DNA of 64,000 nt from the NCBI GenBank assembly GCA_963726255.1, contig CAVSBL010000002.1, forward strand, positions 672,001 through 736,000, in the 5' to 3' direction. Positions 57,461 to 59,509 of this stretch are shown here, piece by piece. A program made the translations under genes and the position numbers. Below the pieces are notes generated by a model that searched no databases, had not been told where the DNA came from, and saw only the letters and a list, made by a program, of their open reading frames with translations. The DNA is from Candidatus Bathyarchaeota archaeon. GTDB lineage: Archaea; Thermoproteota; Bathyarchaeia; 40CM-2-53-6. The stretch's first letter is position 1; every line of letters begins with the position of its first letter.

Positions 57461-58243
57461 CTAATGGCGCTGTGAACGACGTTGCATTCCCAGAAGGCTT
57501 GGAAACGCCGCTCGGCAGGCCGAGGCTACGGGCGGGGTCAATACGACCATGAATGGAATCTCGGTGAAGTAGTTCGAGGCTGCCGCTAGGTAAATGAAAG
57601 CGCCTGCCAAAGGTTTGGTTCCAAGACCGAGTATTATCGGAAGCCCGAAGATCGCGCTATAAGCCACCAGCCCTAGGCCAATTATTCCTGTGCCCAGCGC
57701 GAGCCCGATTGAGGCTGCAACCTCAAAATCGGCCCACCTGTTTCGAAGCACGAATAGTGCGATAACGGCGAAAACAACAACTAGGCCTGCGAACCCGAGG
57801 TATGAGGTCGAAGAACCCAATGCTGCTGCTCCGAAGAGTACGTACACACTGTAGACCAGCGCCAGAGCATAAGCTGGTTGAATGATCAGGCTCAATGATA
57901 GGAGGAGGCGCCTGACCAACGGTCGGAAATCGTGGTTCGGCAACCAGCCTATGATGAAGAAGCCAACAAAATTGGATGGAACGCCGACGAGCAGACTCAA
58001 CAGTGCATCGTGGTGTCCATAGATAACGTCTGCAAGAAAGATACCGATTGCAGCTCCCACGCCACCTACCCACGGACCAAAGAGCACGCTGAAAGTAGCC
58101 GGTACAAAGACCTGCGGCCAGAACCTTACTCCGAAAATTAGCAGTGGAAAGGCTGTCCAGAGAGCACCGATCCCTGCGTAGACAGCTGCGTTCATGGCAG
58201 TCATGACCAGCCGAAGTGACATCGGGTAGCTTCTGCTGCGCAT
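57461..58243 (-). CDS. ECF transporter S-component-like membrane protein
   Basis: 'AMNAAVYA', 'LFGPWVGGVGAAIG' and multiple TMs. Confidence 0.7.
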   Translation of the reverse strand: MRSRSYPMSLRLVMTAMNAAVYAGIGALWTAFPLLIFGVRFWPQVFVPATFSVLFGPWVGGVGAAIGIFLADVIYGHHDALLSLLVGVPSNFVGFFIIGWLPNHDFRPLVRRLLLSLSLIIQPAYALALVYSVYVLFGAAALGSSTSYLGFAGLVVVFAVIALFVLRNRWADFEVAASIGLALGTGIIGLGLVAYSAIFGLPIILGLGTKPLAGAFIYLAAASNYFTEIPFMVVLTPPVASACRAAFPSLLGMQRRSQRH

Positions 58244-58373
58244 TGTGAACCTATTTCCAACTCAGCACTGTCTGCTTATTCTAGCTTATCTTCGGAGTGC
58301 ATTGGATAGTATGACTGTTCGCCTAGCCCAACGAAATCTTAAGATAAGCCTGCTCGGCTCGCTTGTGCCCGGT

Positions 58374-58531
58374 AGCCCGGTGGTGTAGTGGTCAATCCAC
58401 AGGCGTGGGACTACGCATAGCATTGGCGCCAGATAACAGCCAATAGACGGCTCTGGATCCCTCCACCAAAAGGAGAAACCTGCCGACGGGAGATAAGCAA
58501 CACCCGAATTCGAATCTCCCCCGGGCTACCA
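58374..58531 (+). tRNA. tRNA-Gln(CTG) with four introns (58396-58414, 58423-58448, 58457-58477, 58493-58508)
   Basis: The spliced product AGCCCGG TG GTGT AGTGGTCAA GCAT A GCAGG CTCTGGA CCTGC CGAC GGGAG TTCGAAT CTCCC CCGGGCT A CCA is a 76-nt cloverleaf; junctions are BHB-like. Confidence 0.88.
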
Positions 58532-58656
58532 TTATGCACCGTGCTGTTGTCTAAACATTGGAGCATGCTGCTGTCGACTAACTACAATGTTGGGGGACGT
58601 TCTAATGTCGCGTCAGGTTTGTCGGGGAAGGGTAACGACCCTCCGGTAACCCGCAC

Positions 58657-59025
58657 TTATGGGGCCGAGGCTTCCGATTCCAAGTGGAAGTGATGCATGA
58701 ACCTGTGGATAATCGGCGCGAGTAGTACCCCCGCCACCACCAAGAATATGATGCCGGAGTACATTGCGTAGAAGGAGGCAAACAATTTCCCAGCCCTCGT
58801 GTGCAATTCATTCACAGGTCCCATGCCGCCAAGTATCATCGCTGCATTAAGGAGAGAGTCGAGCCATGAGAAACCTTCGAAAGTGTGGTATCCCACCACG
58901 CCAATTACCAGGGAGCTTCCGTCGATTAGGATAGCGATTGATGCGTATAGAGCCACGCGTTTCAAGAAAGCCGAGCGTGAAATCATGGCGTCTTTGTAGC
59001 GTTCGAACAAGGCCGTTCCACCCAC
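58657..59025 (-). CDS. Small 2-TM protein resembling an ion-channel pore module
   Basis: GYHTFEGFSWLDSLLNAAMILGGMGP...T.AGKLFAS, K-channel-like topology without GYG. Confidence 0.7.
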   Translation of the reverse strand: MGGTALFERYKDAMISRSAFLKRVALYASIAILIDGSSLVIGVVGYHTFEGFSWLDSLLNAAMILGGMGPVNELHTRAGKLFASFYAMYSGIIFLVVAGVLLAPIIHRFMHHFHLESEASAP

Positions 59026-59095
59026 CTCATGTGTCCCTATTTCTTAAGCAGGAGCCTTTATCATTCTGCGACGGCTCCAGTTTGACAGAACGTTA

Positions 59096-59353
59096 TTGCT
59101 GTTAATAGTAGGCCTCTTCTCCAAAGGCGACTTTTTCCCAGTCCAAGCCCTCGACCAAGTCGACTCTGTTTTAGCGACGGCCGGTTTCAAGAAGGAAGTC
59201 CGTTCCGTAGTGAAACCGGGAAAGGAGTTCTCGGTTACGTATGAAGGCCCGACTTTGGACAGAAGTCGGATCGAAGAAATGTTGAAGCCAGTGGCGGAGC
59301 AAAACCAGATTGGATTCTCTGTTGCGGTTGAGGAGTCAGTAAGATTCCCATAA
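59096..59353 (+). CDS. Hypothetical protein (ferredoxin-like/ACT-like pattern)
   Basis: 85-aa ORF with alternating beta/alpha pattern. Confidence 0.55.
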   Translation: MLLIVGLFSKGDFFPVQALDQVDSVLATAGFKKEVRSVVKPGKEFSVTYEGPTLDRSRIEEMLKPVAEQNQIGFSVAVEESVRFP

Positions 59354-59509
59354 GCGAGCTAATCAGCTAGGACCCTCGTATCGTCGAGCATAGAGATGGC
59401 GGCGTGCTTTAGTTTTACTTAGCTCACCACCCCTGATTCTCCTCGGCCTCGTTAAATCCTCGAACAAAGGCAGTTGGAATGCATTGTTGATTGCATGGTG
59501 AATTATCAG

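Follow-up and report, generated by a model that had tools for sequence, protein, structure and literature searches.

The locus at positions 58374-58531 on the forward strand of the window, by which we mean the whole 64,000-nt stretch of DNA that was analysed, holds a tRNA-Gln(CUG) gene of 158 nt (G000:C2:730374-730531, with G000 denoting the genome under study, which is that of an uncultured Bathyarchaeia archaeon, and C2 its contig). Its 5′ end is a perfect tRNA portion with acceptor strand, U8, D-stem strand and D loop, and its 3′ end is a perfect portion with the T loop TTCGAAT, the T-stem and acceptor strands, an A and CCA. The gene is composed of five exons and four introns when each 3-nt bulge of its bulge-helix-bulge (BHB) motifs is cut between nucleotides 2 and 3. 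In the following list, H denotes the central helix and an arrow the cut:

58330-58348, forward strand: promoter-like BRE/TATA element AACGAAAnnTTAAGATA, approximately -44 to -27 from the tRNA 5′ end
58374-58395, forward strand: exon 1, 22 nt; tRNA positions 1-21 (5′ strands of the acceptor and D stems, U8, D loop with the sequence AGTGGTCAA)
58396-58414, forward strand: intron 1, 19 nt at 21/22; H GGTC/GACT, h′ CCAC/GTGG, bulges AA↓T and AC↓G
58415-58422, forward strand: exon 2, 8 nt; positions 22-29 (D-stem 3′ strand, A26, anticodon-stem nucleotides 1-3)
58423-58448, forward strand: intron 2, 26 nt at 29/30; relaxed H ATAG/ATAG (2/4 pairs), h′ TGGC/GCCA (4 bp)
58449-58456, forward strand: exon 3, 8 nt; positions 30-37, with the anticodon CTG at 58453-58455 and G37
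58457-58477, forward strand: intron 3, 21 nt at the canonical 37/38 site; H CTCT/GGAG, bulges GG↓A and AA↓A
58478-58492, forward strand: exon 4, 15 nt; positions 38-53 (anticodon-stem 3′ strand, 4-nt variable loop, T-stem 5′ strand)
58493-58508, forward strand: intron 4, 16 nt at 53/54; H CGGG/CCCG, bulges AG↓A and AA↓T, exon-side helix of 3 bp
58509-58531, forward strand: exon 5, 23 nt; T loop TTCGAAT, T-stem and acceptor 3′ strands, discriminator A, encoded CCA

Positions are given in standard tRNA numbering, according to which this tRNA includes 20a and 20b in its D loop but lacks positions 17 and 47. Taking the intron positions as plain sequential counts left the anticodon stem of the product unpaired, and standard numbering was therefore kept. 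When joined in silico, the exons give a molecule of 76 nt that ARAGORN calls as tRNA-Gln(ctg). Its stems are paired throughout (acceptor 7/7, D 4/4 with two G-U pairs, anticodon 5/5, T 5/5), and the conserved nucleotides U8, A14, GG, A21, U33, G37, G53, TTCGAAT and C61 are in place. Among the partly spliced forms (n = 15) and the full-length form, a Gln call with correct structure was obtained only where ARAGORN can hide the remainder as one intron, and the unspliced DNA received no call. Glutamine identity in archaeal tRNAs is defined by a CUG or UUG anticodon, an A1-U72 pair and A73, and the gene has the anticodon CTG, the A1:T72 pair and a discriminator A.

The initial annotation had described a 158-bp tRNA-Gln(CTG) gene with introns of 19, 26, 21 and 16 nt at 21/22, 29/30, 37/38 and 53/54, which after four excisions would yield a fully paired 76-nt cloverleaf with encoded CCA and would contain two internal exons of only 8 nt. 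The coordinates, the intron sites (in standard numbering), the cloverleaf and the two 8-nt exons, which are exons 2 and 3, were all reproduced. The same is true of its description of the splice motifs. All four introns have NN↓N bulges, and introns 1, 3 and 4 have clean central helices with 4/4 pairs each. Intron 2 has its relaxed ATAG/ATAG helix with 2/4 pairs beside the 4-bp TGGC/GCCA stem, such that the strict BHB form is not reached there. In the surroundings of the tRNA gene, the region 58244-59490 (approximately 1.2 kb) contains only open reading frames of at most 122 aa.

A gene with this many introns begs the question whether the reading is an over-fit of a flexible model, the true gene having other boundaries or fewer introns. 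The parser that we used walks the cloverleaf arm by arm and permits introns at any point where the sequence can form a strict or a relaxed BHB. A looser earlier version, in which up to six introns were allowed, returned 1092 readings of the locus, so that parsimony and outside evidence are needed, and two BHB registers, of 19 and 21 nt, fit intron 1. With the start and the end of the gene fixed, though, the cloverleaf constraints left six readings, all of them with four introns and none with fewer. Introns 2, 3 and 4 are unique among these six, and only the register of intron 1 within the D loop varies. The boundary of intron 2 is the only one that restores the anticodon stem GCAGG/CCTGC, and the boundaries of introns 2, 3 and 4 coincide with the edges of the variable blocks in the alignment of relatives described below.

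The reversed genome served as a control for the parser. Its 183 anchors yielded no reading with two introns or fewer and one with three; readings with four, five and six introns numbered 3, 24 and 27. Those with three or four introns, four in total, all contained a mismatch and were all rejected by ARAGORN. Readings with five or six introns were equally common on the real and the reversed genome, showing that the parser over-fits many introns, and those that passed ARAGORN (3+6 real versus 6 control) were at noise level. All were discarded except for tRNA-Trp, which was confirmed by alignment.

The 21-nt register of intron 1 (58395-58415; BHB 4,5,0) would delete A21 and G22. These two nucleotides are invariant in 17/17 genomes of the genus, and G039, G031 and G023, whose D arms have no intron, carry them side by side. 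The relatives without a D-loop intron thus settle the register as 19 nt rather than 21 nt. Since the parser proposes introns by the BHB rule, finding a BHB at the boundaries that it has chosen is partly circular, and intron-free junctions in relatives provide an independent and stronger test. The D-loop intron is absent in G039 and G031, which belong to other families, and in G023, which is from the same family but another genus, and exon 1 there runs directly into exon 2. The T-arm intron is missing in G023 and G038, where exon 4 is contiguous with exon 5, and the 29/30 intron is missing in G037, G040 and G032. Furthermore, G039 carries an intron-free 76-nt Gln(UUG) gene whose D, T and acceptor arms are near-identical to those of the Gln(CUG) gene of G000. 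Over-fitting as an explanation of the four introns can hardly be given any credence.

When 41 genomes, G000 and 40 relatives of which 22 are congeners, were searched at the DNA level, the full-length gene was recovered in 16, namely G000 and 15 congeners, and a match over query positions 1-119 in G022; identity to G000 ranged from 81 to 97%. In the resulting 17-row alignment, the five blocks of exon sequence are constant, unlike the four intron blocks, which differ among the genomes both in sequence and in length. Invariant columns make up 22/22 of exon 1, 8/8 each of exons 2 and 3 (38/38 for the three exons) and 13/15 of exon 4, as opposed to 6/22, 16/32, 12/22 and 1/24 of introns 1 to 4. Summed, this amounts to 51/53 columns in exons 1 to 4 versus 35/100 in the introns, whose mean pairwise identity among the 17 genomes is 46-83%. 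The corresponding figure for exon 5 (11/26) is lowered by three genomes with the fourth intron elsewhere and by one partial row. We consider this contrast between exons and introns decisive against a chance fit.

The few changes that did occur preserve structure. Both changes in exon 4 are found in G022, and there the T-stem change from G to A is matched by a C to T change in exon 5, such that the pair is kept across intron 4. Likewise, helix h′ of intron 1 shows a compensatory CTC/GAG in G001. With homologous boundaries fixed, H of intron 1 is paired 4/4 in 17/17 genomes, with an h′ of 2-4 bp and an intron length of 16-22 nt, and H of intron 3 is also paired 4/4 in 17/17 (length 19-22 nt). 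For intron 4, the figure is 4/4 in 16/16 parsed genomes, G013 being left out. H of intron 2 reaches 2/4 pairs in 6 and 3/4 in 11 of the 17, the G27:C pair being present in 11, and its h′ has 4-5 bp in 17/17. Purifying selection thus acts on the exons only, with introns that drift while accepting structure-preserving changes.

The fourth intron has two locations in the genus. It lies at 53/54 in 13 congeners and at 59/60 in three, G016 (L014), G001 (L016) and G022 (L017), and both versions end in CCCGAA; within one genus, this looks like intron sliding or replacement. The T-loop region of G013 (L012) resembles a hybrid of the two versions in which CCCGAA occurs twice, and none of the boundaries tried gave this ortholog a working T loop. 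Since G013 also has two copies of other tRNA genes, its T-arm anomaly may be due to mixed strains or to an allele that is defective.

In the order as a whole, the CUG gene carries two introns in G023, three in seven genomes and four in 16 parsed congeners (the 17th being G013), as well as in G033, where an intron at 10/11 replaces the one at 21/22. The 29/30 site holds an intron with a strict H (4/4) in both G039 and G033. The UUG gene, for its part, has four introns in G034. Gln genes with four introns thus arose more than once. In G000, the sister tRNA-Gln(UUG) gene (G000:C2:30717-30831, forward strand, L052) has two introns, in the D loop and at 59/60, and none at 29/30 or 37/38, so that the two Gln genes of this genome share at most one intron site.

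The initial annotation had predicted that standard tRNA finders may miss the gene, and they do. ARAGORN reported no tRNA in the whole 64-kb window, nor did Rfam at gathering thresholds, and at E<=10 over 58250-58650 (401 nt) Rfam returned no tRNA but only a chance SAM-SAH match. A search of the whole genome with RF00005 did not detect the gene either. We searched the genome with the exons to see whether a second tRNA-Gln(CTG) exists, a check that had been proposed. Exon 1 (with up to three substitutions) has two matches, in this gene and in the Gln(UUG) gene at C2:30717, and exon 5 has a single one, in this gene. The locus is therefore apparently the only gene for a CAG-reading glutamine tRNA.

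With these data, one can weigh the alternative of a pseudogene in decay, or of a remnant of intron invasions from which no tRNA is made any longer, with CAG being read by tRNA-Gln(UUG). The weak motif of intron 2 and the aberrant T-loop region of the G013 allele would fit with this. Metatranscriptome run X1, the one RNA run to share words with the locus (0.06 of those sampled), gives a single contig that spans only 58002-58117, outside the gene, and so speaks neither for nor against expression. However, a relic would not be expected to have exons that are invariant over 17 genomes next to introns at 46-83% mean pairwise identity, a compensatory exon change as in G022, and BHB potential that is retained in every ortholog, and another CUG gene that could take its place is absent. 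The promoter-like motif, too, is conserved: AACGAAAnnTTAAGATA and its distance to the gene are kept in 16/16 orthologous upstream regions, while the flanks diverge. Read against the archaeal BRE/TATA promoter consensus, we infer this motif to be a BRE/TATA promoter. A pseudogene is thus very improbable. The gene is real and conserved, and, as will become clear below, it is typical of its own genome rather than an oddity.

How could such a transcript be spliced? Two proteins of the EndA family are encoded in the genome, in the regions C2:748279-748530 and C2:1451759-1451998, each carrying both Pfam domains, PF01974 and PF02778. Paralog 1 (188 aa) retains the active-site His, and its closest PDB chains are 3p1z_B (E 8e-41), 3ajv_B (2e-39), 2cv8_A and 2zyz_B; we take the entries 3p1z, 3ajv, 2cv8 and 2zyz to be crenarchaeal EndA structures. 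Paralog 2 (187 aa) has a gap at the catalytic His when aligned to 1a79_A. The RNA ligase side is covered by RtcB, which is also encoded (571 bits). The EndA pair is consistent with a two-subunit splicing endonuclease of broad specificity, such that the enzyme presupposed by the initial annotation has a predicted counterpart in this genome, of the kind solved from Crenarchaeota. Two-subunit EndA, according to PMC5829648, accepts non-canonical introns and relaxed HBh′ motifs.

The order of removal was modelled with ViennaRNA by forcing each BHB (4 pairs and 6 unpaired bulge bases) and determining the ensemble cost at 37 °C in a protein-free setting. In the primary transcript, the BHB conformer costs 3.7 kcal/mol for intron 4, 5.9 for intron 1, 9.3 for intron 3 and 10.1 for intron 2, and in the minimum-free-energy fold of the precursor, the motifs of introns 2 and 3 are not formed. 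The cost for intron 2 falls from 10.1 to 5.6 kcal/mol once intron 1 is removed, and that for intron 3 from 9.3 to 2.6 kcal/mol once intron 2 is removed. The model thus suggests that introns 4 and 1 would go first, followed by intron 2, with intron 3 last. The same intron comes last in the three-intron pre-tRNA of Cyanidioschyzon merolae, where RT-PCR showed that the 37/38 intron is the final one to be removed (PMC3728597).

A stricter version of this idea is that the gene works, but that intron 2, and perhaps intron 3, can be cleaved only after a neighbour has been removed, or else requires a helper or another fold. The drop in model costs after prior removals and the C. merolae precedent (PMC3728597) speak for it, as does H of intron 2, which in G000 has only 2/4 central pairs and is flanked by A-G mismatches. 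However, the helices H and h′ are all formed from local sequence, so that the energy model gives no evidence of an obligatory order, and no prior splice is strictly needed. Also, the energies are model values for 37 °C without protein, and two-subunit EndA enzymes accept relaxed HBh′ motifs (PMC5829648). We consider this stricter version less likely than not. Of the earlier claim that four introns would need ordered splicing, what stands is that a thermodynamic model suggests an order.

Taking these elements together, we infer the following path, with a preferred rather than an obligatory order. The conserved BRE/TATA-type promoter would drive a precursor of at least 158 nt, in which each intron end would lie in a 3-nt bulge beside a 4-bp helix, strict in introns 1, 3 and 4 and relaxed in intron 2. 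The two-subunit endonuclease, composed of the catalytic EndA and its His-less paralog, would cut at eight sites, preferably releasing introns 4 and 1 first, then intron 2 and then intron 3, and RtcB would ligate the five exons, two of them 8 nt long, to a canonical 76-nt tRNA with encoded CCA. We hold it to be highly likely that 58374-58531 is a functional, single-copy tRNA-Gln(CUG) gene that is driven by this promoter, and whose four BHB introns are cut by EndA and whose exons are joined by RtcB.

The gene is in keeping with the rest of its genome. In 2.42 Mb (98.5% complete; G+C approximately 51%), the Rfam tRNA model exceeds its cut-off at only 17 places, 15 of which are 90-126 nt long and 16 of which are followed by CCA, and ARAGORN with one intron allowed mislabels many tRNAs of the genome. 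We conducted a census on contig C2, for which anchors had to have CCA, U8, a 7/7 acceptor stem and a T arm; 231/2593 anchors were kept on the forward strand, 225/2648 on the reverse strand and 183/2030 in the reversed control. The census yielded 32 genes confirmed by ARAGORN, with 0, 1, 2, 3 and 4 introns in 1, 8, 10, 9 and 4 genes, respectively, and 71 introns altogether. In five of the 32 readings, the variable arm is too long to be plausible, and these probably conceal additional introns. Including tRNA-Trp, there are at least 76 introns in 33 parsed genes, or approximately 2.3 per gene. The most fragmented genes besides Gln(CUG), with column counts from genus alignments, are the following:

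C2:42667-42814, reverse strand: iMet(CAT), four introns; 79/79 exon and 22/74 intron columns invariant
C2:979121-979301, reverse strand: Pro(GGG), four introns; 79/79 exon and 62/108 intron columns invariant
C2:1445282-1445480, reverse strand: Tyr(GTA), four introns; 77/77 exon and 70/136 intron columns invariant
C2:266772-267000, reverse strand: Trp(CCA), 229 nt, five introns at 10/11, 28/29, 37/38, 45/46 and 59/60

The exons of tRNA-Trp are invariant in 13 full-length orthologs of the genus. In the fragmented tRNA genes of the genus, the shortest exons measure 6-8 nt. When close relatives are compared, introns are seen to emerge, to be lost precisely and to change place: the iMet copy of G002 lacks exactly the 22-nt third intron, and Gln introns move between 53/54 and 59/60 or, between families, between 21/22 and 10/11. 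Ten further tRNA-like 3′ ends on C2, with a paired T arm, acceptor strand and CCA, gave no clean parser reading. Examples are:

133669, 297720 and 2206623, contig C2, forward strand: unparsed tRNA-like 3′ ends
276703, 667336 and 1670787, contig C2, reverse strand: unparsed tRNA-like 3′ ends

They probably represent further multi-intron genes with weak BHB motifs or with introns in regions where the parser does not allow them.

Multiple-intron tRNA genes as such are not new, and Sugahara reportedly described them in 2007/2008 from Pyrobaculum, Thermofilum and Caldivirga. The initial annotation had named a maximum of three introns per gene. This agrees with a 2015 review, which prints "up to three introns" (PMC4390854), and with the 2021 tRNAscan-SE 2.0 paper, where three is also the maximum (PMC8450103). 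It no longer holds in view of a preprint of 15 Oct 2026 on Asgard archaea, which gives 2.2 intervening sequences per gene for three families and up to five in one gene (bioRxiv 10.64898/2026.10.13.758758). The four introns of Gln(CUG) thus exceed the peer-reviewed maximum, but not the five of the Asgard preprint, and are no longer without precedent. Our search for tRNA genes with "four introns" or "five introns" in combination with archaea or BHB found no archaeal case, and a search for Bathyarchaeia and tRNA introns found no publication on tRNA introns in this lineage. The string "Bathyarchae" occurs 0 times in the available text of the Asgard preprint (bioRxiv 10.64898/2026.10.13.758758).

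In this context, three known systems are worth comparing. With the Thermoproteales, the genome shares short, protein-spliced introns at canonical and non-canonical sites, BHB or relaxed HBh′ motifs, a two-subunit EndA and multi-intron tRNA genes that standard finders miss (PMC4390854, PMC8450103). Thermoproteales average 0.84 introns per tRNA gene (PMC4390854, PMC8450103), with 1.54 in P. calidifontis (bioRxiv 10.64898/2026.10.13.758758). In contrast to their maximum of three, Gln(CUG) has four introns; the 33 parsed genes together have at least 76, and the genome belongs to the Bathyarchaeia.

In Asgard archaea, for which 228 tRNA introns were counted in three genomes in 2024 (PMC11291895), most tRNA genes are also interrupted, many of them in the D arm or at other non-canonical sites (PMC11291895; bioRxiv 10.64898/2026.10.13.758758). 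There, too, many are missed by the annotator, and introns have been gained repeatedly (PMC11291895; bioRxiv 10.64898/2026.10.13.758758). However, Asgard archaea belong to a different phylum. The census of the preprint is computational, like ours. The nuclear tRNA genes of C. merolae resemble those described here in having BHB introns in the D arm, at 37/38 and in the T loop, and the removal order found there by RT-PCR, with 37/38 last, equals the one that our energy model predicts (PMC3728597). Unlike the present case, C. merolae is a eukaryote with a eukaryal endonuclease, at most three introns per gene and some permuted genes, whereas Gln(CUG) is not permuted. On balance, we think it rather likely that the tRNA gene set of the genus, with its at least 76 introns in 33 genes, is among the most fragmented known, on a level with the Asgard record, from which it would be independent.

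Being the sole CAG-reading tRNA-Gln gene, Gln(CUG) is probably essential, and its maturation needs eight precise cuts and four ligations, including those of two 8-nt exons. It thus stretches what archaeal tRNA splicing is known to tolerate. Extreme tRNA fragmentation, which until now has been printed for Thermoproteales and Asgard archaea, is extended to a third lineage. On the practical side, 17 Rfam matches over the cut-off in a 98.5% complete genome imply that the tRNA sets of Bathyarchaeia MAGs are badly under-annotated, and this affects inferences on completeness and codon usage. If the above reading is true, the lineage constitutes a natural series in which to work out the gain, sliding and loss of BHB introns, and the many closely related genomes available here make intron gain, loss and sliding datable.

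Some observations in individual introns and exons deserve mention in their own right. The first 11 nt of Gln(CUG) intron 2 (58423-58433; TTGGCGCCAGA, containing the palindrome GGCGCC) are invariant in 16/17 genomes, which is far beyond what a BHB needs. The 37/38 intron of tRNA-Trp is 61 nt long, highly conserved and has box C/D-like motifs. In tRNA-Tyr(GTA), a 6-nt exon, TTCAAA, is located between the introns at 53/54 and 59/60. Furthermore, parts 1-131 and 91-199 of the Tyr query match approximately 1 kb apart in two relatives (G011:C4:140663-141910 and G004:C42:35497-36746), which suggests a long insertion or a long intron in their tRNA-Tyr genes.
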